In this document: positions 302 to 62,886 of the stretch, one piece after another
How the letters are laid out: each line of letters starts with the position of its first letter
How positions within the stretch are numbered: the stretch's first letter is position 1
Assembly: GCA_022813865.1 (NCBI GenBank)
Contig: JALDZX010000029.1
Span: 124,001-188,000, forward strand
DNA from: Xylographa opegraphella
Lineage: Eukaryota
DNA: 64,000 bases
Direction of reading: 5' to 3'
Translations under genes and position numbers: made by a program
Notes under the pieces: model-generated
Seen by the model: the letters and a program-made list of their open reading frames with translations, nothing else
What the model was told of the DNA's origin: nothing
The model's database searches: none

Positions 302-3300
302 TTAGTGAGGTCCGCTGACGGGGCTACCATATTGGCCGGTGCCAGTTGTAGCAGTCGTGTTGGCGGTGTTGGACGATTCCGCAAGGCCGTGGCTACCAGT
401 GGGATGGGTCACTGATGATCCATATTGGCCGGTGCCTGAGGATGCTGTGTAATCACTGGCGGGATCAATGGTTTCTCCTCGGTCGGCAACACTACGATAC
501 ATTAACTCAACCTCTCATCGCATACGGCCAAAAATGAGGTCAATACGTACGCAGGATCAAGCTTGTTGCCAAGCCCGCTAATGTGAGAACTGCTTGGTAC
601 GGACTCCCCTTGGGCAAGAGCCGTTGTACCTGTGCCTCCAGTGACTTGAGAAGCATAGCCGCTTGTGGGTGCTGCAGCATAGGAGGTGTCACCGGCCATC
701 ATGCTCGCAGGAGGGTCCTGGTCGAAAGTCAGTGAGATTTCTTTTGTGAAGTGAGTGGGAACCTGCCTTGTGTAACCTGTTTCGCTCGTGTTTCGCATGT
801 TCTTCACGCTCGTGCTCATTGATACCAATGGCTCCGGGTCCCGCTGCACCCTCTTCAGCCGGCTTTGCTCCACTGATGCCATATGTACTGGATTCCTGGC
901 GCTCGGCTTCTTCTTCCTTCAGTTCTTTGTCGGTCTTGTCTCGGTGGAGGAAGCCGAGTATGCCTCCATGTTTCTTGCCGTCGTGTTTCTCCTCCTTGGC
1001 TATCTCCTTCTCCCGGTGCTTTCCCTCCTTTTCCAGTGCCTTTTCATGGTGTTTCTCATGCTTGGCTTCCTTCTCCGCCTCCCTTTTCGAGAATTCTCCA
1101 GTACCAGCACTTGTAGCTTGAGAGCCATGTCCGTGTCGTTCAGCCTCATAGCCAGCGCCAGTAGCGCCGAGACCACCAGGGCCGACACCAGCAGCGGTGG
1201 CTTCGGAGTTATGTCTGTAGGCCGGAGGCCCATTGGCTTCCAGCGGAGTATATACCCCAGTAACTTTGGGATCATTGGGAGATGTCAGACCAGGGGCGCG
1301 TGTATCGGGCGCAACTGCGTCAGGGTTGTGCTTGTAAGATGGAGGTCCACTGGCTTCCAGGGGTGTGTATACGCCAGTTGTCTTTGGATCAGATGTCGCT
1401 GCCGTTGACTCTCGCCCGTGCTTCTCAGCCTCATACCCGACCCCGACCATACCTGCTCCAGCAGCGGCGGCTCCACCAAGTTTCTCTTTATCTTCAAAAC
1501 CTTCGTCTACATTGGTCTGGGACGTGGTGGACTTTTTCCGCGGGTCCAGTCTGCTGAAAATGCTTGGCTTACGCTCTTTCTCTTCTACGGCGCCGGTTTC
1601 GGCACCTACCGCTGTAGATCCATGTCGACTAGCGGCACCCTTTTTCCCGTGTTTTTCTTCATCAGTATATGCGCCGCCGTCATGTTTATAAAGGGGAGCT
1701 GCATTTTCCTCATATGGGACAACGACTCGGTTTCCCTGCATCCCTCCCGAGTCAGCAACGCCGTATTTGTGGCCAGTAGCGTCAGCGACAGGTGGATGTT
1801 CAACAGCAGCATAGCCCGCATCGCTAGTCGTTTGTTGGGGAACTCTTGGGTCTAGAGTATTGAGTGCGCCCGATTTGTGGTGTACATCTGAAGCTCCAGG
1901 ATCCATGCCGAGGTTCCTGCTCGACGCGGTGGAAGCTTTCCGGTCCGCGCCTACCACTCCGGAACTACCACGACGCTCAGCCTCATAAGCGGCGCCTCCC
2001 ATACCACCCACGAGAGCTGCATCGCGCGCTTTGTGACTTGGGTGTGTGGACGAGGCTGAATCACTGCCTTCTACGGTTTCAGAATCATGTTTGCCTGGAT
2101 GTAGAAGTCTACTAATCAAGCTCGGTTTGCGTTGTTTCTCAGCGGTGTCGTGCTCTAGTCCTCCTGTCGTAGAACCATGCGGACGTTCAGCGTCATAAGC
2201 GGCTGCTCCTGTGCCACTTGCGAAAGCGGCATCTCGATCTTTGTCTTTTCCAGTGGATGGTCCGAATCCAGTCTCTTGGAACATCGTGGGATCACGTGTA
2301 GTGGATCCGGTGCTTCCGACACCTCCCACGTTGCTCGTTGGTGCTGTATCATTCTTGTTGCCAGTGAGTCTATCCATGAGGCTTGGTTTGTGTTCAGTTT
2401 GTGCCACTGCAGGATCGGTTCCTTGCCCAATCGTACTGTGCGGTTGAGTGGTTGTGTAAGCAACGGCATCGGTACCCGGACCGAAGCCTGGACCATCAGC
2501 ATGTGGGTCAAGTCGGTTTGCGGTATCAGTGACATGGGGACCAGGTACGAAATGAGGTGCTGCCGGTTCTGCACCAGGACCACACGGATCAATGCTGGAA
2601 CCAGAGTGACCGGAAGTCATGCCAGTATTTCCGCTGGCATTGCTGCTGGTGTTACCAATGTCATGGTGGTGTTCATGTTCCGCTAGACCGGCAGCTCCAC
2701 TAGCGGCTCCTCCAAGTGTTGCGTCACGCTCGAGATGGCTTGGATGAGAAGTGGTGCTGGATGTTGGTCCACCAGTACCAGTTGTTGCTGATGAAGTGCC
2801 GCCTAAAGGAAATTCGCGTTCCGTAAGCGAGGACCCTAGGTTTTCTTGAGGCCCCTCTTCCCCACGTCCAGAAGCTATCTCCCCGATCTTATCTGTTGCT
2901 GAAGGGTGAGCAGTAGAAGCACTAGTAATCGGTTAGCCGACATTGTCGTAAAGAATGAAAGAATTCTCTGGCGTACCTCCCCACAGATCGATCAGGATAA
3001 GTGTTCCCGGTCAAACCACTGCCAGTAGTTGTCGAGTCGTTTTTTAGTGCTGATTGGGCGGCCGGGGACTCAGAAGTCCCAGCTGCTTGTCCTGCTGGGT
3101 CAAGACGACGGTCAGTCTCATATGCGGAACCACCTGTACTGCTAGCTAAAATAGTGTCCGTTTCCGTTGTCCCGTTGAGCCCAGAGCCCGAAGTCGCACC
3201 GGGCACGCCGTCTCGGATAGCTGTAGTGCTGCCAACCTCGCTGCTGAGCCCAGGCCTTTGCGCCGAGCTTAGATCTCTCGAGAATGGGCCATCAGTTGAT

Positions 3301-6329: not shown

Positions 6330-7937
6330 TTACTCAGCCATAGGCTCCATCATAATTTCAGCAGACTCTTTCCCCTCGTCCCTCCGTTCCAGTGCTCCCA
6401 CAGCGGTTAACAGGGGCTCGATTGCCGTAGTAGCTATCGTCGGCACTGAAGAATGAGCCATTGTCTCAAGCCCGGACATAACACATTCCCCAGCGGACTC
6501 AACAATGCCCTTAGCGGACTCAAAGCCAGTGGCCACCGCACTCGGAACTGGCTGCATCAAAGACTCCACCGTCGCAGGCGTGGCATTCCTTCCCGTTGAC
6601 AAGAATAACACCACCATACTAAGCAGCGCGATGATCAGGTTCTTCCGCTCTCGCATCACCAGTCTTAGGTAATTGCGAAGCAGAACCCACAATTCGACGT
6701 CCTGGCAATCCCGCCTGGGCCTCGAGAAGCTCTGCCGGAGTATCTTTGGGCTTTCCTCGAAGCCGTCCACATATGCCTGGGCATCTTCACCATATATCTC
6801 CCGTATCCGGTCCGCGTCGATATTGCCCACCCCATGGATGGGCTCCGGGCTCAGATGGGCGTCGTATCCCGGCTCGCCCAAGCCCCTAAGCTCTTCCTCC
6901 TCCCTCCGAGCCTCCAATTGCCGCCTCAGCCCGTCTTCAATCCATGGCTGCACTTCCACATCGACTCTCTCCATCTCCCTCCACGCTGCACCCCAAGCAC
7001 CAGCGCGCATGAGCCCGTTCGCCGCATACACCTTGACATCCCACCGCTTCGTTCCCGTTCCACTCCCCATCCGCCCATCGCGTATCCTCCTACCACAATC
7101 TTCACATATGTCCTCATCCGTCTCACTCTCATCATCATCCTCCTCCACCTCTCCCTCCTCCAAATGGAAATGCCCGCACTTGAGTATTCTGGGGACCTTC
7201 AGCTCTAAGCTTTCCAGCAGCCGCTCCTCCAATAGATCATAATCTTCCCTCGGATGCGGTATCAGGATCCCGCGTTCTTGTACCGTTGCCGTAATTTTCT
7301 CCCCCAGCAGTTTCCACCCCTCCAATATCTCACCGGGGAGCACCGCCTCCATCACTTCCCGTGAGTAGGGTAACCCAAATGGTAGGACAGTCACATGCAG
7401 CAGCACGAGCGGGTGCTCTTTCCGAACCTTCTCCTTCCGCACGCCGCTCATCCGCGACGGGGAGCGCACAGAGTGACTTGATCGGGGCGTACTATTCCTC
7501 GTTGGCGTACTGAAGCGGGAGTCTTGCGCTTGAAGCTCCTGCTGCCGGTGGCCCGAGCGATTGATCACGAATGGCGGCGGTGTTGTTTCGAGTTGAACCG
7601 CTCGTACCGAGGAAGGGTGTCGGAAAGGAAAGATGGTCTTAAGAGGCGTGTAGGGAGAGGGGGGACGCTGGGCCGCTGCATTGTAGGAGGGTACGCGCGA
7701 GGACGCGGCAAGGGAGGAGATGTCATCGTCGGAGGTGTGCGGTGAGGAGTGGTGGGAATCGTGGTGTGTCGGGTTGTCAAAGACGGTGTCGTCGGGCCCG
7801 CTGGAGTTGTGAGAGTGTGGTTCAGAATCGGAACACTCGTCCTCGATACTTGCCAGCAGAGGGTTTTTCGGTTGTGAGGACGCGGTTGGGGAATGCGCTT
7901 GGTTGCTATGGGTGTCTGCGAAGTCTATCTGGTCCAT
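6330..7937 (-). CDS. Conserved fungal hypothetical protein (family often annotated pathway-specific nitrogen regulator), one C-terminal TM segment
   Basis: Intronless long ORF with first ATG at 7937. Conserved core PLVLLHVTVLP...RGILIPHPREDYDLLEERLLESLEL..PRILKCGHF...CxxCG...WDVKVYAANGLMRAGAW..AWREMERVDVE. Hydrophobic LIIALLSMVVLFLS near the C-terminus. Confidence 0.75.
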   Translation of the reverse strand: MDQIDFADTHSNQAHSPTASSQPKNPLLASIEDECSDSEPHSHNSSGPDDTVFDNPTHHDSHHSSPHTSDDDISSLAASSRVPSYNAAAQRPPSPYTPLKTIFPFRHPSSVRAVQLETTPPPFVINRSGHRQQELQAQDSRFSTPTRNSTPRSSHSVRSPSRMSGVRKEKVRKEHPLVLLHVTVLPFGLPYSREVMEAVLPGEILEGWKLLGEKITATVQERGILIPHPREDYDLLEERLLESLELKVPRILKCGHFHLEEGEVEEDDDESETDEDICEDCGRRIRDGRMGSGTGTKRWDVKVYAANGLMRAGAWGAAWREMERVDVEVQPWIEDGLRRQLEARREEEELRGLGEPGYDAHLSPEPIHGVGNIDADRIREIYGEDAQAYVDGFEESPKILRQSFSRPRRDCQDVELWVLLRNYLRLVMRERKNLIIALLSMVVLFLSTGRNATPATVESLMQPVPSAVATGFESAKGIVESAGECVMSGLETMAHSSVPTIATTAIEPLLTAVGALERRDEGKESAEIMMEPMAE

Positions 7938-8780
7938 GTTTGGCAGCGATACCTGGGAATTGGAGTACGCCACAACAGTAGGAAATGGTTCAAAGTAGAG
8001 TTTGCTGGTTATAGTGTAGCCGTCGCGTGAGGTTATAACCTCTGGACTACACTGCAATCAGAGCGCCCTCAGAGACCTGATCCAAAAGCGAAAGCAAACA
8101 GGATTAGACTTTAGGCCCGTCTCCATGGGTAACGGCTAGTTTAGAATACAGCTAGGATCATTCGCTAAGCTCTTGCGCTGTCACTATTTCTTCGCGACCA
8201 TCAATATCTGAAATTATGACTATAGAAATGTATACTCTAGAGTTTCGTCTCAGATCTATTCAGCATGATGTTGTCAGTCAATATGTCTGGCATTTTACTC
8301 ATGTGGCTTTCGAAATACTACACATCACTACCTCGGATGTTCTGTTTGATCACGAAAGATCTTGCTTCATGCTGCTTCTCTGATTATGTTCAATGTTTAT
8401 GATTCTCAGCGATAATACTCACGTTGATATGGCTTTTTGAATCTTCTTTGAGTTTCACGAATTTTCGCGTGTTTTCAAGGCCAGTTATGCTCGTGTCGAG
8501 TAAAGAGTAGACACTGGCCTTATGTCGTCTCCGATACTAGTGAAGGCTGGCCGAATATTCAGCGTGAAGCTTGGTACAGATGCGAGCCACGTTTCGGCGA
8601 GATTCCGGAAGCATTCCAAGTCTATTTCCCCAGTAAACATACTGGCCACCCCACAACTTCCCCACAACCCTTTCTCCGTTTTCAGTCCGATCTTTTTTCC
8701 GTCTGAAGTCGCAATTTGAATCTCGATGTTTCGTCGTCTTTGTTTGTCGCTTGCATAGTGAGCACTTGATCTCGTCGAGA

Positions 8781-11707
8781 ATGCGATCGTCCATACTTTC
8801 ACGCATACTAGGTGTCGCTCTATGTCTTACCTGGCAATTCTTGGCCGCCAACGCAGTATTTGACGCCTGTCGAAACAAGTATCGTGTGGTAACTACGGTC
8901 CTCATCTACGAGAATTCAGTCTATATCAACACAGATGTATTATCAAATACCACTTTCAAGGTAAATCCTGGAATGACTATCACGGTGGACAACGCGCCGA
9001 CGAGCTTCGACATTACCACTATATATATCTCGAAAGTCTCAAACGTCGACACTTTATATGTTTCTCCGGCACATCCAACCAGTCTGATCGAGGGCGCTCC
9101 GTTCACTCTACTTGTCGCAGGTCGCTCAAAATCCCACCGTCGTCGAAATTCGGGTGGTACTTATCTAGGCTTCAATGGAACCCTTAGCACATCATGCTCA
9201 TCCGCAAGCACGTACACATTAAGCGACGGTCAGCTTTATGAGCAGAACAATGGTGCCACTTTAGAGTTCTCTGCTGCGAGAGACATTGGCTACGAGTACT
9301 TTGTGCCAACTGCTTCACCTGCTTCTATCACCACGACTTTCTCCCTTGGAGAAGGAGGCTCTTTGCAGTGGGTAAACGATGCTTTCTTCAATGGCAACGC
9401 CTGTTCTGTGCTCTGAGCGATGGAACTATAATAGCAGTCTTTTCACAAGACGCTGAACCATCCGGCTGCGACTTTGTTGACATTACCATTGGTGATATTT
9501 CAAGCTGTGTTCCTCAAGCAGGACCTAGCGGTTAGTATACTGGAATGATCAAAGGATTATGGAGACGACGTTGATACTCGTTACAGGACCTCAGGGAACT
9601 TCGGGTCTGAGTGGTCAGTGGCCTCCAGAAGAGAGTTCAAGGGATATCTGCTGATATGATTCTAGGAATGCCGGGACCTTCTGGGCCGTAAATATCACCT
9701 CTCAAGCAATGAATCCTCAGTCTGATATGTCAACAGATCCGGTCCAACAGGTCCACAAGGTGTTTCTGGATTGAGCGGTTAGTTTAGAAGATATCGATTT
9801 TTATTCCCGAGTGGAGACACTAACAATGGAAAAGGGATACCAGGGCCATCTGGGCCGTAAGATACCTGCGGACCGAAATTATAATTTCTAACATGCGATA
9901 GATCTGGTCCTACTGGACCGCAAGGTGTTTCTGGACTTAGCGGTGAATAGTCCCAAGGGTGATTCAGCAGTCGTTAGCTTTACTCATGAAGATCCAGGAA
10001 TACCGGGGCCATCGGGTCCATCTGGACCGTGAGTTATTCATACAGCAACCTTTACTGCTGTTGACTTTATATAGTTCCGGTGCATCAGGCTTATCGGGAG
10101 CGTGAGTATTCGAGCACAGAGATGTGATATTACGCTGATGCATTTAGATCCGGCGCATCGGGGATATCTGGTCCTACAGGGTAGGTGTCTCTTGCGTTTA
10201 TATTAGTCTTGCATGATAATCGTATAATAACCTGGCACAGGTCGGTGGGTCCTTCTGGCCCTTCTGGCCCTTCTGGCCCTTCCGGAGCATCTGGAGCATC
10301 TGGACTTTCAGGGAATGTGGGGCCGTCAGGACCTTCGGGGCCTTCGGGGCCGTCGGGGTCGTCGGGGCCATCGGGACCGACAGGTTCATCTGGACTTGTT
10401 GGCTCGACCGGGCCCACTGGACCGATCGGGCCGTCTGGACCATCAGGACCATCAGAACCCACTGGAGTGTCTGGACTATCAGGCCTAGCTGGCTCGACTG
10501 GACCAAGCGGACCATCAGGGCCATTGGGGCCGTCAGGGCCTTCGGGGCCGTCGGGACCATCTGGCCCATCAGGACCATCAGGGCCATCGGGGCCATCGGG
10601 GCCATCGGGACCATCGGGGTCGACAGGTCCATCGGGGTCGACAGGTCCATCAGGACCATCCGGGGTTTCCGGGATATCGGGTATGGCTGGCTCGATTGGC
10701 CCAACTGGGTTAGTTTTCTCCTAACCTTTTATATATTGCTCGAGATCGGGGATTGACTTGGGGTAGGCCGGCTGGACCAAGTGGTCAGTAGATACTTATT
10801 GTTAACAAAGGAGATATTGATATCCGCTTCAGGACCGACAGGAGCTACGGGTCCTTCTGGTGCGTCTGGTGTCGCTGGAGCTCTTGGGCCAACCGGGTTT
10901 GTTTTCCTGAACGTTTCCATATATTGGTAGAGCCGCGGCGCTGACTGATGACAGACCGGCCGGACCGAGTGGTCAGTAGTCACTGGATCCATCATAATAG
11001 AAGTATTAATATTAGCTTCAGGACCAACAGGACCGACGGGACCGACAGGCCCGACAGGACCGACAGGACCGACAGGACCTTCTGGTGCATCCGGTATAGC
11101 CGGAGCGGTAGGGCCAACTGGGTTCGTTCCTGATGTTCTTGCATATTGTTTACGATCACATAACTAACCTTGAACTAGGCCTACTGGACCAAGTGGTCAG
11201 TAGACGTCTCTCCTCATACTGGTTATGATAGCATTGATATCTCCGTTAGGTCCAACGGGTCCAACAGGTCCAAGTGGCGCCAGCGGCCAGTCTCATTAGC
11301 CTTGAATGAGATTTCAACACGAGCACTGACACAGGGAACAGGCGCTGCAGGCTCTCGCGGCTTGCAAGGAATCGATTACGCTTACATTGGCTGCTTTCTA
11401 TCAAAGCGGGACGACTACGACAACGACGGGGAAAGTGCTCTCGACTTTCGAAGCCGTTTACACGGGAAGCGTCAACACGCAATGCGCCTCGATCTGTCTC
11501 GCCGGCGGCTTTACGTTCTTTGGTGTCGTCAATAACGGTACGACGAACGGAGACTGCTACTGCGGGAACGCGTTGAACTACGTTACCGTCACATTGCTGG
11601 GCACGGGTCAGGCGCCGGACAACAATTGCTATCTGTGCAATTACGGCTATGGGGAGTGTGGAAATTACACTTCGTCGACGATCGCGATCTATGCGCGGTC
11701 GTTCTGA
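8781..11707 (+). CDS. Secreted collagen-like protein: signal peptide + N-terminal domain + ~112 Gly-X-Y triplets + C-terminal WSC domain; 17 exons; two 1-bp frameshifts as assembled (possible pseudogene)
   Basis: Exons: 8781-9530, 9587-9613, 9666-9687, 9737-9777, 9835-9856, 9902-9942, 9998-10028, 10075-10101, 10148-10180, 10241-10708, 10767-10783, 10833-10896, 10955-10971, 11022-11121, 11179-11195, 11250-11285, 11342-11707. All junctions keep the Gly-X-Y register. 8-Cys WSC pattern YIGCF..CASIC..GFTFFGV..DCYCGN..CYLC..ECG..IAIY. Frameshifts at ~9400 and ~11396. Confidence 0.85.
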
Positions 11708-11808
11708 GGCGGTGCTTCCGGGTCTGGTGTCTTGCTTTATTTCACTCCTTCAGCGATACCCCATTTCCTTGGTCTTGGCATAGAGCGGGTAATTCTCGCG
11801 TTGGTGGT

Positions 11809-11875
11809 CTCGGTCACTGTTTCGGTCACTGTTTCGGTCACTGTTTCGGTCACTGTTTCGGTCACTATTTCGGAC
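11809..11875. repeat. Tandem minisatellite, 12-bp unit TTCGGTCACTGT x ~5.5
   Basis: Read directly; lies ~100 bp downstream of the collagen-like gene stop codon. Confidence 0.95.
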
Positions 11876-15532: not shown

Positions 15533-17686
15533 CTACCCGAAAAGGACTTCTCGACCCATCTGCTGCGCGACGTCGCGCCAGCCGATCTCCGCCTCCCCAG
15601 CGTCCACCCGCCGCCAGAGCTCCTCACACACCTCCCATCCCGTCACGATGTTGCTCATACCCTGCCTGCTCTCGAGGTGGCGGAAGACCGTGCGCGCGAC
15701 TTCCCGGTCCGGCTCCTCGATCGCGTGCGTCGCCGCGGTGAAGAGCGGCCACAGCAAGGCGGCCATCGGACCGGAGAAGATGACGACGCGGAGGCAGTGC
15801 TGCAGCGCCTGCTTGGCCGAGGCCTGGATCTTGGGCGAGGATCGGGAGTGCGACAGGATGTCGTGGTAGAGGTGCACGAGCGCCGCTTGCTTGTAGGCGT
15901 CGGCGTTGTTCAGCACGGATTGCAAGCGGGAGTCGTCGGCGGGGCTGTCGACAGCGATCATGGACGTGGGGATTTTTGGGCTCCATTGGTGCAGACCGAG
16001 CTCGATGTTGGCCACGCTGGAGTCGAAGTCGGCCCGCATCGACGTGGTCTTGTCGTGACCGGGGTTGGCCATCTCTTCCCGTTCGAGGTTGCGCTTCACG
16101 TCGACCAAGCCGGCGAGGCGGTGGATCATCGGCCACAGATCGGTGATCAAACCGAAGAGAGTGTCGACGCCGGACATGGCCGATGTTTCGCGGTGGTTCA
16201 GGAGATCATTCGTCGTCGGTGCGAGGATCGTGCCGGACATGGGAGAGGTGGCAAAGGAAAGCGCAGAGGAAACGTCAAAATATCGGAAAGCCTATAGTCG
16301 AGAGATTAGTTTTGCATGTCCGGAGCTCTCTCCCCACGTTTCCGGAAGGCGGGCATACTCGTTCTAAGAAAGTGCTCGTGGTGCCGCGCCGGGCCCTCCG
16401 CTCCCGCATGATGGACAACGCACCGCGAAGATGACTGCTCAAGACCGTCGACGAACCACTCCGGACCAGCTGTGCGACCCGTCAGCGCGATTGCCGTCAG
16501 GACCGGGGGGGCAGCGCGCGCGCGCACCACTCACCTCGTAGTACAACAGCAAGGTAATGACCGCCAACACCTCGTCCCGGTTGCCGTCGTCCTTATGCGC
16601 TATAAGATTCGCCAGGCCCTGCAAAGCCTTCGAATGCAAATCCAGCGCCCTCTCCTCCACCGGCAAGCCACGATGCTCGAGGTGGGCCGTTGAAATAGCG
16701 TAGATCGCGTTGAGGAGGGGCGGGCTCTTGGGCGCCATGGGCAAAACCAATCGCCGGAATGGATTCCCAGAATCCTCCTTGAACACAATCAGATGGCTGA
16801 GAACATTGCAGAAGTGATCCAGCAAACCTCTGCGCGACTCCCGCGTGGTAAAGTCAGAAAATGCGGGCACCGCAAAGTCGTAGGGCGAGCCGCCGGAGGT
16901 GGGCGAGATGAAGGCGCTGGTGGGGTCGGGGTAGGAGCTGCTGCGGGAGAGGGCCGAGGTGGGCACGAACATGTCCTGCGTCGTCTGGACGTCGGCGCCG
17001 TAGACGTCCTTGGCGTACATGTCCAGGGCGCCCATGTGCAGCGGCTTGATGTCCGACAGCAGCTCGGCCGTCGTGCGCGGGAAGGCCTCCAGCGGGTCGA
17101 AGGGCGGCAGCGGGGAATGCATATCGAGAATGGTGTCACTCCCGCAACTGGAGGCCGAGTCGCTGAAGACCGAGTGCGCACTGTGAACCTCCCAATTCTC
17201 GGCAATGGCGGGCAGCGGAGGGGTGGGCGAGGTGGACATGATGGACGAGCCCGAGCCGGAGCTCGAATCCTGGCGCAGCGCCTGGAGCCGGTCGCGGAAG
17301 TCGAGGTGCTGGCCGGGCATGGTGGTGGGCGGACGCATCATGAAATGCTCGGGGTTGGACACCGTCCGTCTCCGCTTCCGGGGCTTCACCGGCTCGTACT
17401 CGCACTTGAGGCCCCGATCCATGCATCGGTCACACTGGGGACGCTCCTCGTTGCACTTCTTCTTCTTTTCCTTGCTGGCGGCCGGTCAGACATTGATGCT
17501 TCCACACCGTCACTCCCGTTCGGTGGAGAAGGCTTACCAGTGCACACAGCCTGATGCCAGTCAGTCATCCTCGTTCTGATCCCGATTACCATACCGGAGT
17601 GGGAGGGGGAGAAAGGAATCAAGCTTACCGGCGCGAGAGCGACGCTTGGGAGTCTTTGCAGGAACGGGACGGTGGTACAGCAACAT
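15533..17686 (-). CDS. Zn(II)2Cys6 transcription factor with C-terminal fungal-specific TF domain (Fungal_trans_2-type)
   Basis: Splices to [50 protein letters not shown] via a 13-nt exon (17538-17550). Downstream it reads HFCNVLSHLIVF..NPFRRLVLPMA..LLNAIYAIS..AFRYFDV..LLWPLFTAA..W. An upstream in-frame ATG near 17757 is possible. Confidence 0.9.
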
Positions 17687-31291: not shown

Positions 31292-33450
<2,159 letters not shown>

Positions 33451-34843: not shown

Positions 34844-36604
34844 ATGAATCAGCCTAAAAGACTTATAGTTGCGTGTGATGGTCAGTGTATCTTACCTGCC
34901 AATATAAAAACTTCAGCAACTAACATCAGTATTTCACACAAGGCACTTGGGAGGTAAGCCAGCTCATGACATATCATGAACTTCCGGCATTGAAACCCTG
35001 ACAAGAGCATCTTTTCAGAATAGTGACGATGGCTTCGTCAGAGACAATTACTGGCCATGGAGTACCAGTGGTCACCTAGCAGATCCCACCAATGTCACTC
35101 GGTTCTGCCGGGCTTTGATGTCCCACAGTCCTCACAAAGACATCCAACAGATCGTCTACTATCAAGCTGGACTTGGCTCTGCAAATAACTGGTACGATCA
35201 GATTATTGGCGGAGGTGGGTTGCGTGACTATTTATTGGTGTGAGGGCAATGGCTGATTCAGCTTGCGGGCATTTTAAGCTACTGGTAATGGTATTTCTGA
35301 ACTCGTCCGGGAAGCCTACGGCTTCCTGTGTCTTAATTACGCGCCTGGTGATGAGATTTTCCTTGTTGGTTTCTCCCGCGGCGCTTTTACTGCCCGAACC
35401 ATCTCGGGCCTTATCGCAGACCTCGGGCTGCTCACTAGAACCGGCATGATGAGTTTCTATCCTATCTTTAAAGACTGGGAAAATCAAGTAAAGAAAGAAT
35501 ATGTCAGCCCGTGGCCGAACCTACCTTTTCCTAAGAAACCTCCATTCCATGACCCGCACTACACGAAGGAGCTCGAAAGGGTAAGTGTAACGATATGCTC
35601 AAGAGAATTAGCCACTGACGGTTGTCACAGCTTGATATGACGAGACTGCGGATCCCCATCAAAGCAGTCGGAGTTTGGGACACCGTTGGTATGGAAACTG
35701 TGGCCATTGCGAAACTTGAACTTGTCGTTGATGTGGGGTTTTAGGTTCATTAGGCATCCCGGATATCGGGCTTTGGCCTAAAGGTCCTTCGGAGTACGCT
35801 TTTATCAATACGGTAGTCTCTCCCAACGTGGAGAACGCCTTCCACGCCCTCGCCCTCGATGAACATCGCAAGCCCTTCTCGCCCACCATCTGGGAGAAAC
35901 CCGAGGGGCAGCAGTTGCCGAACAAGCTAGTTCAGTGCTGGTTCCCGGGCGTGCACGCAAACGTCGGCGGTGGCTATCCAGACACGGCCACCGCAGACAT
36001 CACGCTGGCTTGGATGATGTCGCAGCTCGACGAGTTCCTCGATTTCGATCCGGAGTACATTGTCTGGCAGCGCGAGCTCAACGTCAAGTACTACCAGGAC
36101 GAGAAACCGCCTGCGGCGGTCAGGCCCTGGGCTATGGGTGAGGTGTACCACACCTACAAGGGAATTGCATACCTGGGTAAGTCACCGTTCATTCAACATT
36201 GCTTGCATTGCTCATTCTCATCTGGATCAGGAGGCTCACAAACACGTACGCCCGGTCAGTATCACCCCACCGACGGCGTGACAGGGGACCCGAAACCTCG
36301 TTACCTCCGAGACACCAGAGAACATATCCACCCATCCGTGCGCGTTCGCCTTGCATGTGGCGGCAAAGGCGCCGAGGACCAAGGCTTCTACACTCCGGAA
36401 GCGCTGAAGAAGTTCAAGCTGCTTGCGCCTGGCGAGGTGACCGACAAGACGGCAGCCGTGCAGGATCCCTACGAACACCGCTACCGGTGGGTGCTCCGCT
36501 CGCGTGATAGGGTAGTCATTTTACCCGAAAGTGAGCTTGGAGACGTAGAGTTAAAGCTGCTGCGCATGTCCCCCGAGGCCGAAAAGATGGTCGAGCATGC
36601 TTAG
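34844..36604 (+). CDS. DUF2235 (Tle1-like phospholipase fold) alpha/beta hydrolase
   Basis: KRLIVACDGTW, PTNVTR, QIVYYQAGLG, GDEIFLVGFSRGAFTAR, GVWDTVGSLG, AFHALALDEHR, QCWFPGVHANVGGG; includes an 11-nt exon at 34943-34953. Confidence 0.9.
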
Positions 36605-38663: not shown

Positions 38664-41070
38664 TTATTTGCCCTTGTTCCCTCTCTTGCCTCCACGTTTA
38701 GCTCTTTCCACGTGAGCTTTCAAGACCCTCCCCCTCTCAACCAAGCTCTTCTTCTGCTTTCCTTTCGCCTTGCCAAGGGTCATCATAAAGTTCTTCTTTC
38801 TTGCCTTCTCTCTGTTCGTTGTGCTTTTGCCCTCGCTCTCCTTTTTCTCCCGGCGAAGGGCCTGAGTACTCTTGTGCCCCGTGCGCTCACCCTTGCCTTC
38901 TCTGGCCAATGCTACTTTATCGGCTTTAGATGCTTTCTTAGAAAGAGCTGCGAGCCCCTCAATCTCAGCCGCTGTCAGGGGATCGTCCGCGTGCCTATTT
39001 TGTTGTGCCTGTTGCTGCTGTGCCAGACGTTTCCGCTGGGAAGCTGGAAGCGCTTTGTTGACACTAGCTTCTAGTCGCAACTCGTGAAGCTTAGCAATAT
39101 CTGCTGGTGTCAGGATGCGTGTAGTGGCAATTGTAGAAGTTCTCTTTTCAAGCTCATTAGCTGCGCCTAAAGCGTTCTCTTTATTATCGTCTTGAGAAAG
39201 AGACACAGGCTCTACTTTTGTGCGTTTTGGTGCAGGTTTTTCGTCATCAGAATCGCTGATTTCAATTTCGACATCACTCTCGGCATTTATCCAGCCGCCT
39301 GAATCGTCACTATCGACTTCCTCGACCTCCCAGCCATTTTCATCTTCGTCATCTGCCACATCTGCTTCATCATCTGGGAGAGTTCCATCCAGCCTTTTCC
39401 GCTCTCTTTCCTCCTCCTTCCATTTTTCCAATAGCTCTAAGCCCTCAATTTCTCCTGCCTCTTCTTCTCCAAATCTACGCTCTTTGCGATCGCCAGCTCT
39501 CAATCCCATAGCTGCTTCTTTACCTCTATCTCTTTTCTTTAGCATATCCGCGCCCACTTCGCGATAGAGACCCAAAAGTCCTTTTGCAGCCATCACGACT
39601 CCTTTATCCTTACTTTTCTTGTACATAACAAGATCCTGCAGAAGCGTATCGTTCATAGCAAGTGGCTGTCGAGCGCATATTTCGCGAATAGCATTAAGTC
39701 CAGCAGAAGCAACTTCAGAAGCCGAAGCTTCAGATACAAATTCATTGGCAATTTTCTGTATTAGGGGCTCTAACACATCCGGAGGGACAAGAGAGTGTGT
39801 GGCTTGCGCGAGTGAGGCGAGGAAAGAGGTTACAGAGGGTTGTCGAGGAGTGAGGTATTTTATGAAATAAGAGTACAAGCTCATGATAGTGAGCTTATGC
39901 AGCCCCACGAGCCGAGAAACAAGCTGTAGAACTTGTAGCTTCTGTTCCAGATTCAGCTTGGATTTGGTGTTCTGCAGGTGTTTCGAAAATAGTGTCTCGG
40001 CAAAGCCTTGTGGATCGTGTAACAGATGAAACGCAGAGAAATTCAGAGGATGCGGCTGTTTCTTCTTACGTTCCTTCCTCTTGACCATTGATACAGCGTT
40101 CTCCATTACCTTAGCCTTCTTTTTGCTTTTTTTGTTGATGCCCATTTGGTGCTTCAGCTTTCCCAAGTCTATTGCCTCCTCGTCGCTGCTCTCGTCATCC
40201 AAGTCTTCTCGCTCTTTGTCGCCTCCCAGAAAGAACCTCACGCCTCCAACAATCACCTTCTCGTTATCAGCCAGACAAGCCTCTTTCATAATCTCCACTG
40301 TCTTCGGGTCAGTCCATATCTGTCGTTTCCACAGTTCCCTTGTAATCTTGACTGCCCATATCCCCTTAGAAGATGTTCGGTCAGACGTAAGGAGATTGAA
40401 TAGAACAGTTTGAATAGTTCTGTTAAGGCGATGATTCGTAGTTTTAGAATTGGAAGTCCGCAGATCAGATAGGATTTTTTGGAATAGTAAAGTGCGAAGG
40501 GATTTGCTCGGCGTCGAAGTAAGAATTGGAAAGAGCGCATGTAGCAGTCTGAAACATCAATATTATGAAGCACGCAAGAAAGGTGGTGGATGAGCTTACA
40601 CAGAGGAGTCAATAATATCCTTCCTTCGTAACAGAACCAAACTGCCCACTATCTTTTCTCGGAGTTCCGACTCGAGAACCTGGTGATGAAGCGTGAGAAT
40701 CTCTATCAATTCATTTGGGAATTTAGCAGTGAGCTCTGGAAAACACTCTGCGACGTGAGAGGTGAAATCGATGAGGTCTCGAAGTGACACTATCCCAGCG
40801 TTGGTGGCGGACGAGGGGGCCTGCAAGAAGATCTCTCGATGGGATTCATATTGATTGAATTGCTTGATAAACTCTTCTTTATATGATCTATCTAGCGTTA
40901 GTGCCACTCACCAACAAGAAAATGATCATTGTACATTGGATCTCGCCGTATTTTATTCTGTAAATTGGCTCTACATAAGTAATGGTCAGCGGCAAATTCA
41001 GATAGAACATACACTTCACCTACAAGTCGGCATCAACCTTTTCCAAGGCTCCCACCTTCCGCTTCACCAT
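38664..41070 (-). CDS. SDA1: 60S biogenesis factor SDA1
   Basis: MVKRKVGALEKVDADL, LNFSAFHLLHDPQGFAE, IANEFVSE, GLNAIREIC, RILTPAD, KSTTNREKARKKNFMM. Confidence 0.95.
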
Positions 41071-53342: not shown

Positions 53343-55508
53343 ATGCTCGATAGTTTCGAGATCCTCACCACATCCGGTGTTGTCCTTTGGTCGCGTTCTT
53401 ACGACTTTGTGTCTCCCAGTATCATTAATAGTCTCATAAAAGATGTCTTCATTGAGGAGACAGTGCTTCCCGGCGCAAGTGTTGCTGACGATGCCTCGGC
53501 AGCTCGCAACCTTCTGTATAAAAAGGACAAGTACACCCTGAAGTGGACGACCGTGAAAGACCTCGGCTTAATATTTGTTGTATGTGTGCTTAGACTCACA
53601 TCTGCTTTACCACTTGACATTTTGCTAATAAAGGAGTGTCGTTGGCGCAGGCAGTGTATCAATCTTTACTACAACTTTCATGGATCGACAAGCTTCTGGA
53701 TAATATTAAGACACTTTTTGTAGACCTATATGGCGATCAACTCAGGAAGCCCCATACAAGTGTTGTGGAGTGTGAGTTCGATGCATACTTTGACCAGCAA
53801 TTAAGGGAGTTGGATGGCTCGGTGGACACTCGTGGTCCACCTCTGAAATCGCAAGAGGACCTTACACCACCTTCGAGCTCCGGTACTGGAGATGAGCCTC
53901 CTCCTCCTATTCCAGGCTTATTACAAGGTGAGCACAGGCATATTTAATGGAAAGATGTTAATGCTAATCGCATACTACAGCCTCTCAAAGGCCTCTGCCT
54001 GGCAATGCTACGTCGACAGATGCGACCCCAATACCCACCCCAGATACTTCAAGACCTACTACGCCTTTAGTCGGCCATCTGCTGTCTGGATCAGCAGGTC
54101 CGAAAGGGACTTCACGCCGAGCCAAGAAGGCAGCAGCACTTTCTGCAAATGTTTCTTCGGGAGAGGAGACCTCGCGAAGAAAGCCAAAGCCCAACAAGGC
54201 AACATCGAAGAAATTAAGGAAATGGGACGCAGATGGATTTGCTGATGAAGACGACGAAGTGACTTTGGATTATTCGGCCACCTCGCCGGGTGCCGAGGGA
54301 GGAGATGAACTAGGCGAGAGCGCAAACGCCACTGTAGAAGATATAAGGCCAGAAACCTTTGGCACACGGACTGGCAAGGGACAATTCGTGCTAAAAGACC
54401 TCGACAATGAGGTACATTCGATACTGCAAGGCGCTAATGCCAAAAAAGCCCCTGATACTACAGTCTCAACCGGTGTCCTTGGGTCAAGCCTTGGTGCCAT
54501 CAGCGGCCTCTTCCGTAACATCATTGGCGGTAAAGTCCTTACTAAAGCCGACCTTGACAAGCCTATGAGAGGTATAGAGGAGCACCTTCTCAAGAAAAAC
54601 GTCGCGCGAGAAGCAGCTGTGCGCCTCTGCGAGGGTGTTGAGCGTGAGCTCATTGGTGTCAAGACTGGCAGTTTTGAAAGTACGCATCTCGTTCTCCCCT
54701 GCTGATCTCACCTAACTTAACCCCCGTATTAGGCGTTGAAGCCACAATCCGTACCTCAATGGAATCCTCGCTTCGCAAGATCCTCACCCCAACCACTTCC
54801 CTCGACCTCCTCCGTGCCATAACCAACACCACCTCCCCTTCCGCCTTAAACCCTCTCACCTCTTTCCGGCGCCCGTACGTCATCTCCATCGTCGGCGTCA
54901 ATGGCGTTGGCAAATCCACCAACCTCTCCAAACTCGCCTTCTTCCTCCTCCAGAACGACTTCAAGATCCTCATCGCCGCCTGTGACACCTTCCGCTCCGG
55001 CGCCGTGGAGCAGCTGCGCGTGCACGCCCGCAACCTGAAGGAGCTTGCTCAGCGCGAGGGGCTCGGCAAGGTCGAGCTCTTCGAGAAGGGCTACGGCAAG
55101 GACGCGGCCAACATCGCCAAAGATGCCGTTGCTTACGCGGCCGCGCAGCGATTCGACGTCGTGCTCATCGACACGGCGGGGCGCCGGCACAACGACGCGC
55201 GGCTGATGTCGAACCTGGAGAAGTTCGGACAGCTGGCGAACCCGGACAAGATATTCATGGTTGGGGAGGCGCTGGTGGGGTCGGACAGTGTGGCGCAGGC
55301 GAGGAATTTCAACGCGGCGTTTGGGCCCGGGAGGCACTTGGATGGCTTCATCATCAGTAAGTGCGATACGGTGGGGGATATGGTGGGGAGCTTGGTCAGT
55401 ATGGTGCATGCCACTGGGATACCTGTGGTGTTTCTGGGGGTCGGGCAGCACTATGGGGATTTAAGGACATTGAATGTGGGGTGGGCGGTTAATATGTTGA
55501 TGTCGTAG
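53343..55508 (+). CDS. SRP101: Signal recognition particle receptor alpha subunit
   Basis: MLDSFEILTTSGVVLW, GVNGVGKSTNLSK, DTFRSGAVEQL, DTAGR, FMVGEALVG, SKCDTV, FLGVGQHYGDL. Confidence 0.96.
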
Positions 55509-60812: not shown

Positions 60813-62886
60813 CTAAGAGTAACTCACAATGTTCCACAACGCTGATATCCTCTCGCCCATCCTTTCTCCATATCCCAAACCCACGACTCCCTTACAGACT
60901 TCCCACGCTCTACCCGCATTATTTATAGGATAATCTACCGCGCCCGGTATCGCCGTGTTGATCCATGCCGGAAAACGATCTCTGCACACGCTCTTCGTGT
61001 TACAGATCGCTCTCAAGCCTTCCTCTCCGGCAAACCTTCCATACCCACTGCCTCCAACGCCGCCAAACGGCAGCTGCACAGCGTAGTATACAGCGAAGTC
61101 GTTCACGCTGACCATGCCGGCCTTAACATTCGCGACGACAATGTCGAGATCTTTTGTCGAGGAGCCGAAAACGCTGGCGCCGAGGGCGTACATGGTGGAA
61201 TTGGCGAGTGTGATGGCGGATGGGAGAGAGTCCGCGCGCATGAGGAGGCAGATGGGGCCGAAGCACTCTTCCTGAGCGATGCGCATGGAGGGAAGAACGT
61301 CCACGAGGAGGGTAGGGGAAAAGTAGTGGCCTTTTGGGTAAGTTGGATGGAGGTAGCGCTTGCCGCCGACGAGGAGTCGCGCGCCTTGAGAGACGGCTTC
61401 GGCAATGAGGGCTTCGAGGCGGGGAAACGATTCGGCGGAGATCATGGCTCCAACGTCAACCTCCGGGTCTTCGAGAGTGGAGCCGAGGCGGAGAGTCTTA
61501 ATTCGGGTTTCAAGGAGTGAGACCAGCTGCGGATAGATGGCCTTGAGGGTGATGATACGCTCGATACCGATGCAATTCTGTCCGGCGGATTGGAAGACAC
61601 CGCGCATGAGGATTGAGGCTACTTTCGGCAAGTTCTTGACATCGTCGAGGATGATCGCAGGGTCCTTGCCACCGAGTTCTACACAGACCGGAGTAAGCGA
61701 CTTTGCTGCCGAGGCGCAGACGGAGTGAGCAACGGGACGAGAGCCAATGAAGGTGATATGGCCGATATCTGGGTGGGATGTCAAATGATTAGCAGTTTGG
61801 GGCCAGCAGACAATGGACTGGACGAGCTGAGGAGAGTGTCCACAGGCAGCAAGAGATGCGCGCGCAATCGAGCTGAAGTACTGAGACGACCAGGCCGTAC
61901 GTTCGGAAGCTTTGACAATGATAGCGGAACCTGTAAAGAGTGTTGATATTATGGGCCCAATAAGATTGTGGAACTAAGGGCTTTAGCACAAGGGTTGGCG
62001 GTGTAGAAGACGGAACGGTAGCATACCGGATAGCTTTCGAAGTCAGCAGGACGTCCTTTAAGCTGCAATGAAAACATCTCACTTCCAGCTCACACAAGCG
62101 GCCACGACTCCTAGCGGCTCCCATCTGACCTCGTTATACTTGTACATCATCAGGAAATTCGACGGCCTTCGCTCCGATCTCAGTGCTTTTTCTCCATGTT
62201 GTATTGTCCACTTCAGTTTTTCTGCAGTAACAAGGATCTCCCCAAAGCTCGCATCAACCTTTGTCTTCCCCGAATCCAAGCAAGCCACGGTAGCGATCGT
62301 GTCCTGATTTCGTAGGATGTACCTAAAAATTGCCGTTCGTGAGCTTCTGGTCTGAAGGTGTTAGATATTTGGAACGTAATGGTATGACTGACCTCAACAT
62401 AGTCTTCAAGACTCTTCTCCTCTGCCCCCATGTTGTTTTCGCCCATTTCACCTGCGCTTCCTTTGCTTTTGCAATTGCTCTGTCTATTCCATCCGAGGTG
62501 GTAGGATTGAAGTTGGCAAGAAGCCTACCATTAGCAGGGCAGTAGCATTGTATTGCACTTGACCCAGAGACCTTCGTAAAAGATACCACTTAGCAATTGC
62601 GACATATAGTTAAAGATTCAAGAAACGTTCTATTTACCTTTATATTTGGGTTGTCAAGAACTTCCCCTACCCATGCTGGCGAGCATTGCTCAGGTATCGG
62701 CACGGTAAAATTCACAGGCAACTCATCCTCATCGGTTAAAACAGTGTAGGTGAGAATTGTATATATAAATGCTATCACAATGAAGCTTGAAATTATTGCG
62801 ACCCAAGGTACTGACTTTGATGGGAACAATTCACGATACGGACGATCGAAGAGATCGAGCATAAATTGCCCGGCAAGGCGCTCCAT
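60813..62886 (-). CDS. MSC7: Aldehyde dehydrogenase with N-terminal TM anchor, MSC7-like
   Basis: IQCYCPANG, DASFGEILVTAEKLKW, EPLGVVAACVSWN, FIGS, ELGGKD, GQNCIG, EECFGP, LPFGGVGGSGYGRFAGEEGL. Confidence 0.88.

Follow-up and report, generated by a model that had tools for sequence, protein, structure and literature searches.

How does a collagen-like stalk grow, and what sets its length? This question is raised by a gene of the fungus Xylographa opegraphella that lies in the stretch of 64,000 nucleotides (nt) analysed here (GenBank assembly GCA_022813865.1, contig JALDZX010000029.1, positions 124,001 to 188,000), which we call the window and whose positions are used throughout. The gene, putatively that of a secreted multi-domain protein of a lichen-forming fungus, extends on the plus strand from an ATG at 8781 to a stop codon at 11707, and the region 9587-11285, which corresponds to its exons 2-16, encodes a collagen-like stalk of Gly-X-Y triplets. 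A preliminary description of this region had proposed that the stalk grew by tandem duplication of exon-intron units and that skipping of these units could make it a splice-tunable ruler. Taking our reading as a whole, we are fairly confident that the stalk arose by duplication of exon-intron cassettes together with slippage of 9-nt repeats, that its length is set by units of DNA, and that the copy in this genome is likely inactivated. No further Gly-X-Y gene was found within the window.

The predicted protein consists, in this order, of a signal peptide, an N-terminal beta region, DUF7908, 111 Gly-X-Y triplets and a Cys-rich WSC-like domain. Exon 1 (8781..9530, plus strand), which has an ATG and an open frame, encodes the putative signal peptide, a hydrophobic leader formed by the first 25 residues as judged by eye, the beta-rich region and DUF7908. 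The DUF7908 profile (Pfam PF25485) gave 80.5 bits at residues 105-207 and exceeded its gathering score of 27; the remainder of the domain (profile positions 103-130) is found in the next frame, and the domain is split at profile position 101/103. The triplets of the spliced reading, all but one of which start with Gly, include GPS 41 times and GPT 18 times and form a long Gly-X-Y run that matches the Collagen profile (Pfam PF01391). Exon 10 (10241..10708, plus strand), an intronless stretch of 468 nt (52 x 9) rich in 9-nt tandem repeats, scored 82.7 bits by itself against a cutoff of 27.2. The last exon (11342..11707, plus strand) adds three further triplets, the Cys-rich domain and the stop codon. 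The WSC profile (Pfam PF01822) gave 20.2 bits on this exon, under the cutoff of 27.8, and 15.3-22.4 bits in five homologues. The gathering score was thus missed in 6 of 6 sequences, which speaks against a WSC domain proper, and therefore we call the domain WSC-like only. Three chains of the protein would wind into a collagen-type triple helix, and this helix would keep two putative carbohydrate-binding ends apart in the manner of a stiff spacer. What we observed directly are the sizes of exons and introns, the likeness among the introns of cassette B (see below), the domain matches and the frameshifts with respect to orthologues. Splicing, trimer formation and sugar binding, as well as the pseudogene status treated below, are what we infer for this gene.

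In a three-frame translation, the Gly-X-Y reading changes frame at short gaps that are richer in AT, start with GT and end in AG. For the gene model, 15 GT donors were fixed, every AG acceptor that keeps the frame was listed and Gly was held at each third residue. The stalk exons within 9587-11285 then measure 27, 22, 41, 22, 41, 31, 27, 33, 468, 17, 64, 17, 100, 17 and 36 nt. This reproduces exactly the exon sizes and end points that had been proposed before, including the exons of 27, 27, 468 and 36 nt that are multiples of 9. The 16 introns are all 45-60 nt long, 15 of them with GT-AG and one with GC-AG ends, and a YTRAY branch-like motif stands 9-12 nt upstream of the acceptor in 14 of 16. 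Their G+C content is 0.34-0.48 as against 0.64 in the exons, and each of the 16 would bring an in-frame stop if retained. None lies between triplets: 12 of the 16 split a Gly codon and four an X codon. In exon 5 we chose the 22-nt option (acceptor 9834) over the 13-nt option of our script (acceptor 9843) because acceptor 9834 is the first AG past a CTAAC branch motif and gives a match to exon 3. Intron 1 (9531..9586, plus strand) is a phase 1 GT-AG intron of 56 nt inside a Gly codon with a stop if retained, and it is followed by exon 2 (9587..9613, plus strand; 27 nt) and intron 2 (9614-9665, plus strand; 52 nt). At precisely the point of intron 1 there is a break in the gene models from X. 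vitiligo and X. bjoerkii and in the model P0158; in the models P0007 and P0160, non-collagen sequence stands directly past the GVSGLS that matches exon 2. At the other end of the stalk, intron 16 (11286..11341, plus strand; 56 nt) has the GC donor GCCAGT where its neighbours have GTCAGT. Reading through it leads to a stop after four codons (11297-11299), and acceptor 11341 is the only one that carries the Gly-X-Y frame into the C-terminal domain.

The clearest trace of duplication is found in the 3' part of the stalk, in three units that we call cassette B. On the plus strand, unit B1 (10709..10896) is made of intron 10 (58 nt), exon 11 (17 nt), intron 11 (49 nt) and exon 12 (64 nt), unit B2 (10897..11121) of intron 12 (58 nt), exon 13 (17 nt), intron 13 (50 nt) and exon 14 (100 nt), and unit B3 (11122..11285) of intron 14 (57 nt), exon 15 (17 nt), intron 15 (54 nt) and exon 16 (36 nt). 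The 17-nt exon thus occurs three times, at 10767, 10955 and 11179, as previously described. Partners of 64 and 100 nt hold for two of the copies; the third, omitted from that description, pairs with 36 nt, and since 17 + 36 = 53 nt is no multiple of 3, only the 36-nt exon alone is symmetric there. The three units can be aligned end to end, exons included. Exons 11 and 13 are identical at 14 of 17 nt and exons 11 and 15 at 15 of 17 nt, and exon 14 is exon 12 extended by 36 nt of GPT repeats. Both of the intron motifs reported earlier were seen again, GTCAGTAG...ATT(G/A)ATAT in introns 11, 13 and 15 and GTTNGTT...ATATTG in introns 10, 12 and 14.

The introns themselves were compared in all 120 pairs, each with 500 shuffles of the interior in which the splice-site bases were kept fixed. 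The pairs 10/12 (z 5.07, 67% identity) and 11/13 (z 4.03, 71% identity) ranked first and second of 120, followed among the cassette-B pairs by 11/15 (z 2.70, rank 7), 13/15 (z 2.38, rank 11), 12/14 (z 1.83, rank 17) and 10/14 (z 1.82, rank 18). As a group, the six pairs exceeded the rest in a one-sided Mann-Whitney test with p 4.7e-6, a value that has to be read with the non-independence of the pairs in mind. Identity with introns of the third copy is 57-63%; other compared intron pairs show 48-59%. Sizes, phases and intron sequence all agree, and they argue strongly for cassette B being a tandem duplication of exons plus introns. By their sequences, copies 1 and 2 are the younger duplication. 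Intron 16 was considered as a fourth copy of introns 11, 13 and 15 and found unsupported (z -1.27 to -0.01). Copies of any of the stalk introns were searched for elsewhere in the window and none was found.

Cassette A, in the 5' part of the stalk, presents a different picture. On the plus strand, unit A1 (9666..9834) comprises exon 3 (22 nt), intron 3 (49 nt), exon 4 (41 nt) and intron 4 (57 nt), and unit A2 (9835..9997) comprises exon 5 (22 nt), intron 5 (45 nt), exon 6 (41 nt) and intron 6 (55 nt). Both copies of the 22+41-nt exon pair noticed before were located here (9666-9777 and 9835-9942). Their coding part is 63 nt or 21 residues, and they differ at 12 of 63 coding nt and 1 of 21 residues. 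The introns do not follow: identity is 58% between introns 3 and 5 and 49% between introns 2 and 4, which is background level. Cassette A is therefore plausibly an older duplication, or one that would be visible solely via its exons and intron positions. Downstream, on the same strand, lies a degenerate third A-like unit (9998..10240) of six parts: exon 7 (31 nt = 22 + 9), intron 7 (46 nt), exon 8 (27 nt), intron 8 (46 nt), exon 9 (33 nt) and intron 9 (60 nt). Exon 7 corresponds to the A-type 22-nt exon plus one triplet and is 61-65% identical to exons 3 and 5. The alignment of introns to each other that the preliminary description had called for thus separates the two cassettes, with similarity above shuffles in B and background similarity in A. 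Its proposal that the stalk grew by tandem exon-intron duplication stands for B, whose introns supply the top two of 120 pairs. For A it stands in the repeated exons and intron positions, but not in the introns.

These findings point to a mechanism with two routes. In the first, unequal crossing-over would copy two-exon, two-intron cassettes in register (22+41 nt in A; 17+64, 17+100 or 17+36 nt in B). The second route would be slippage of 9-nt repeats within exons, as in exon 10 with its 468 nt and in the 36 nt by which exon 14 exceeds exon 12. Tandem Repeats Finder reported periods of 9, 18, 27, 45 and 54 nt in exon 10; it is these 9-54-nt periods, together with exon 14 being exon 12 plus GPT repeats, that lead us to propose slippage within exons as the second route. 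Multiples of 9 nt and matching phases occur because in-register copies of Gly-X-Y sequence can only persist in this way. The multiples of 9 nt are thus a consequence of duplication and no independent signal of design.

If stalks grow in this manner, their length would be tuned over evolutionary time through gain and loss of DNA units between species. A comparison of cassette number between species had been suggested as a check. The zone of cassette A, defined as the residues between the first block and a later 16-residue block, does vary in length, from 36 residues in X. pallens and 42 in the window to 117 in X. trunciseda. These lengths were read from automated protein models only, which are cut short. 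Of two metagenome scans for DNA of relatives, the first yielded no relative. The second yielded one locus, L001, which was discarded with its 27% identity and lack of a Gly-X-Y region. A scan of a genome collection with a single protein gave no matching locus.

What is the state of the gene in this genome? Two frameshifts were found. At the first (9401..9402, plus strand), DUF7908 lacks one base, so that the original frame runs into a stop four codons on, before the start of the stalk; FFNGNA is read in one frame and LFCALSDG in the next, while FFNGNALFC is continuous in every homologue read. At the second (11395..11397, plus strand), one extra T is present in a run of T at the start of the WSC-like domain, where the window passes from YIGCF to YQSGTTTT... 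with a change of frame; the homologues have a continuous LGCFYQTG. A Gly-to-Glu change (GAA at 10455..10457, plus strand) is the sole break in the 111 triplets. A short intron spanning the first frameshift was tried as an explanation and rejected, because the GT...AG options at about 9372-9433 give a stop or an out-of-phase stalk. A contig rebuilt from a public sequencing run (30,803 nt, word depth 163) showed 0 differences over the 3,051 nt of 8700-11750. From that study's two other runs, nothing was obtained but scraps of 33-36 nt with low identity on the GPS repeats. Frame breaks relative to intact orthologues that are also present in reads, in this case reads possibly of the same source as the assembly, correspond to a unitary pseudogene. 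The two frameshifts, the GC donor of intron 16 and the Gly-to-Glu codon lead us to regard the window copy as probably a young pseudogene or null allele that was recently inactivated.

The idea of a splice-tunable ruler has its own arithmetic. Removal of the exon sets 3+4, 4+5, 5+6, 11+12, 12+13, 13+14 or 14+15, or of the single exons 2, 8, 10 or 16, would leave both the frame and the Gly register intact, just as had been predicted for skipping of the units. Removal of exon 9 (33 nt) keeps the frame and breaks the Gly register. Alternative acceptors can be read in the sequence as well. In the GPT-coding repeat at 11021-11075, CAG recurs at spacings that are multiples of 9 nt, which gives intron 13 five more candidate acceptors in register, at 11030, 11048, 11057, 11066 and 11075. 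Intron 4, with its acceptor at 9834, has one further in-register candidate 9 nt downstream, at 9843. Use of these extra acceptors would shorten the stalk by whole triplets. No RNA run covering 8700-11750 was found among the public runs listed.

How firmly can duplication be preferred, and does the ruler add to it? Several points weigh against duplication. The six cassette-A intron pairs are unenriched (p 0.58, ranks 15 to 120), so that the duplication of A has to be argued from exons and intron positions, and collagen-coding exons are of low complexity and resemble each other in any case. Taken by itself, the third B copy is weak, with intron pairs that reach z 1.8-2.7. All introns and exon boundaries are predicted from sequence signals and homology only, and the cassette counts of the relatives come from automated protein models that are visibly broken in the stalk region. 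One could thus suppose that no cassette was ever duplicated, and that sizes and motifs go back to independent intron gains, for instance by introner-like elements, or to convergence of low-complexity sequence. This would fit cassette-A introns that are no more alike than random pairs and exons that are alike through composition alone. It does not fit introns 10/12 and 11/13, the top two of 120 pairs, standing at matching places in adjacent units, nor a whole B unit that aligns end to end with its exons, and gained introns without any copy elsewhere in the window are not what it predicts; we consider it very improbable. The ruler asks for something else, namely that skipping of cassettes or use of in-register alternative acceptors yields various stalk lengths from one gene. 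The skipping arithmetic permits this, and so do the AG acceptors within the GPT repeats of exon 14 and the one 9 nt into exon 5 (9843). However, the symmetry is automatic when copies arise in register. According to a survey of 23 fungi, skipped exons account for 3% of alternative-splicing events and intron retention for 61%, and short fungal introns are recognised by intron definition (PMC3925392); both speak against cassette skipping. In addition, the reading frame is already lost before the stalk is reached, and with two frameshifts relative to all orthologues a functional ruler in this genome is doubtful. A splicing ruler is therefore unsupported and unlikely here, and we give it hardly any credence. 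For intact orthologues, too, it appears highly improbable that cassette skipping or the CAG acceptors spaced by 9 nt produce a ladder of stalk lengths. If it were true, the spacer that joins a beta-trefoil head to a WSC-like anchor, at the surface of the hyphae of a lichen fungus, would be set by splicing. We therefore keep to a stalk that grew by cassette duplication and slippage.

The inactivation of the gene has to be weighed in the same way, since the gene could be intact and functional with both frameshifts being errors of sequencing or assembly. Both are located at short same-base runs, where they change the length of runs of two or three identical bases, and the splice signals and the Gly-X-Y frame are sound throughout the stalk. 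The run that confirmed the sequence is possibly the assembly's own source and in that case no independent check. Private substitutions are not raised either: over 224 columns the window copy has 8, compared with 2-12 in five relatives, and relaxed constraint was thus not seen in the N-terminal domain. All of this weighs against a pseudogene. On the other side, the rebuilt contig agreed without a single difference at a word depth of 163, the other genes of the window read cleanly, and the gene carries two lesions of other kinds, the GC donor and the Gly-to-Glu codon. An intact gene thus seems possible to us but rather doubtful, and we maintain that the copy was probably inactivated. From the lack of an excess of private substitutions we conclude that any decay would be recent.

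Structure models give some indication of what the stalk would connect. An AlphaFold model of the N-terminal part of the X. bjoerkii protein, which is 73% identical to the window sequence, had a mean predicted local distance difference test (pLDDT) value of 78. All 50 matches listed for this model by VIA-align were beta-trefoil structures, many of them lectins, at residues of about 100-250, with Z of 7.8-9.6, a root-mean-square deviation of 2.8-3.9 Å and 107-132 aligned residues. Foldseek found no match at E <= 0.001 with the same model. DUF7908 is hence predicted to be beta-trefoil-like, which is a likeness of fold only, and it possibly binds sugars. For the C-terminal domain, the AlphaFold model from a five-sequence alignment was unusable (pLDDT 33), and a search by sequence profile yielded no solved relative below E 0.5. 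The nearest clusters in the protein atlas carry WSC (score 0.85), which may be taken as a lead only. A profile search of solved structures was dominated by collagen repeats and included a weak match to BclA.

The stalk was also modelled in three copies, using residues 345-494 of P0005, a full-length family member. The score was 0.62 with the best control at 0.00, to be read with a calibration that used two copies. Runs had at least 92% of contacts in common, with partner pLDDT of at least 79. In the calibration, 21 of 30 proteins solved as one-chain pairs came up to the mark, and 0 of 23 solved as single chains did so; for eukaryotes the figures were 17 of 29 such pairs, and only 1 of 7 among those that have no older solved relative. 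As the modelled interface lies mostly in the Gly-X-Y part, the trimer score of P0005 probably reflects likeness to solved collagen helices.

The gene belongs to a family of considerable size. In a library of 1.84 billion proteins, the N-terminal domain matched 192 representatives at E <= 0.001, 68 of them at E <= 1e-10. The proteins closest to this domain, all hypothetical, come from Xylographa vitiligo, X. pallens, X. trunciseda, X. carneopallida and X. bjoerkii; those closest to the C-terminal part are hypothetical proteins of Lambiella insularis. The region of the N-terminus and DUF7908 is 79.7-88.3% identical to five Xylographa-type proteins (224 columns), and the WSC-like domain shares 67-73% identity with the C-terminal ends of P0003, P0004 and P0005. 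The matches thus place the source among lichen-forming lecanoromycetes close to Xylographa. At least 18 residues of Gly-X-Y were present in 29 of 155 family proteins examined. P0005, P0022 and P0029 are full-length and show DUF7908, Collagen and a sub-threshold WSC in this order, with Gly-X-Y runs of 138, 234 and 225 residues, respectively.

In the zone of mini-exons, all six named Xylographa and Lambiella models are truncated, continue into an intron or are wrongly joined (P0001, 415 residues; P0003, 409; P0006, 295; P0156, 255; P0157, 305; P0159, 179), and several named orthologue models break exactly at the sites of intron 1 or 2. As a rule, the DUF7908-collagen family seems to defeat automated annotation. 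Current annotations would thus overlook the true architecture of the family, which may serve as a warning for annotation practice. In P0002, a model from Alectoria fallacina, a membrane domain (PF01284) precedes the DUF7908 protein at the N-terminus; instead of a real fusion, the annotation may have merged two genes here. In the linker between the N-terminal beta region and DUF7908, a low-confidence region, relatives keep a dibasic RRQ or KRQ, a motif that we take to look like a Kex2-type processing site. The window has RRR at the corresponding position (9138-9146), and the near-invariant Gln is lost.

In a work on animal fibrillar collagen genes, these genes are held to have grown via a 54-base-pair (bp) exon unit and later via a two-exon unit of 54+45; their exons of 54 bp (or 45, 99, 108 or 162 bp) have an intact Gly codon at the start and an intact Y codon at the end (PMC2852846). 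As far as that account goes, the gene described here shares with them a rod made from many small exons, tandem copying of exons plus introns, a two-exon unit and exon sets in multiples of 9 nt. It differs in that each of its 16 introns interrupts a codon, that of Gly in 12 cases and that of X in 4. Its units are 63 and 81/117 nt, its mini-exons 17-41 nt and its introns 45-60 nt long. The rule of 54-bp type exons with intact end codons does not describe the window gene, whose exons measure between 17 and 468 nt. As the domains at either end of the rod are also unrelated, the likeness should not be read as common descent. Convergence with animal collagen genes, which had been claimed earlier, is thus correct in principle, as regards tandem exon-intron copying, but not in the details of intron placement and unit sizes.

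Among fungi, a survey reports a collagen domain in 73 of 169 families, and names Metarhizium MCL1 and the Microbotryum fimbrial collagen as cell-surface proteins (bioRxiv 10.1101/2021.10.08.463732). The words exon and intron are absent from its text. Another example, cgnA of Aspergillus fumigatus, is a fungal collagen-like protein with Gly-X-Y repeats (PMC8545126). Like the protein described here, these are Gly-X-Y proteins of ascomycete or other Dikarya fungi; in contrast to it, no report of a DUF7908-collagen-WSC-like order or of cassettes was found for them in the library searched. The library searched yielded nothing on DUF7908 or on exon-intron cassettes in fungal collagen-like genes, and nothing relevant on a collagen triple helix in lichens.

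Proteins with a lectin or globular head on a trimeric collagen stalk are well known from collectins, C1q and bacterial proteins of the BclA type, and in the bacterial ones the number of repeats varies between strains. The predicted protein resembles them in having a putative carbohydrate-binding or globular head on a collagen-like spacer. It differs in its ends, a beta-trefoil-like DUF7908 on one side and a WSC-like domain on the other, and neither a coiled-coil neck nor a C1q domain was found in the window gene. With WSC domain proteins (PF01822), the C-terminal domain shares a similar Cys spacing and weak profile matches in the six tested sequences; it is set apart by scores of 15.3-22.4 bits, all below 27.8.

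In the surroundings of the gene, a 12-nt unit, TCGGTCACTGTT, is repeated 5.3 times with 98% match at 11810-11873, about 100 nt past the stop codon, and likely lies in the 3' untranslated region. Just upstream of the collagen-like gene, an open frame of 575 residues (6330-8057, minus strand) has no Pfam match. The same holds for an open frame of 747 residues (689-2932, minus strand), which has much Gly, Ala, Thr and Ser and appears to be of low complexity. A Zn2Cys6 transcription factor (16439-17485) and a Tle1-like hydrolase of the DUF2235 type (35732-36604) belong to its ordinary fungal neighbours. Poly(A) polymerase (31687-33258), likewise an ordinary fungal gene, reads cleanly, as do the equally ordinary SDA1 (38664-40556, 630 residues), the alpha subunit of the signal recognition particle receptor (53968-55508) and an aldehyde dehydrogenase (60813-61973).

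In conclusion, the stalk is a new example of a known evolutionary process, with nothing mechanistically new, in an ordinary-looking secreted family. It would provide a fungal case of a collagen-type rod built via copying of exons plus introns, in a lineage separate from animals and with a different intron placement. With respect to the library searched, the order of DUF7908, collagen and WSC-like domain defines an undescribed family of putative secreted proteins in lichen-forming fungi. With two putative sugar-binding ends joined by a rigid spacer, its members would be candidates for proteins of the cell wall or of the contact with the partner.

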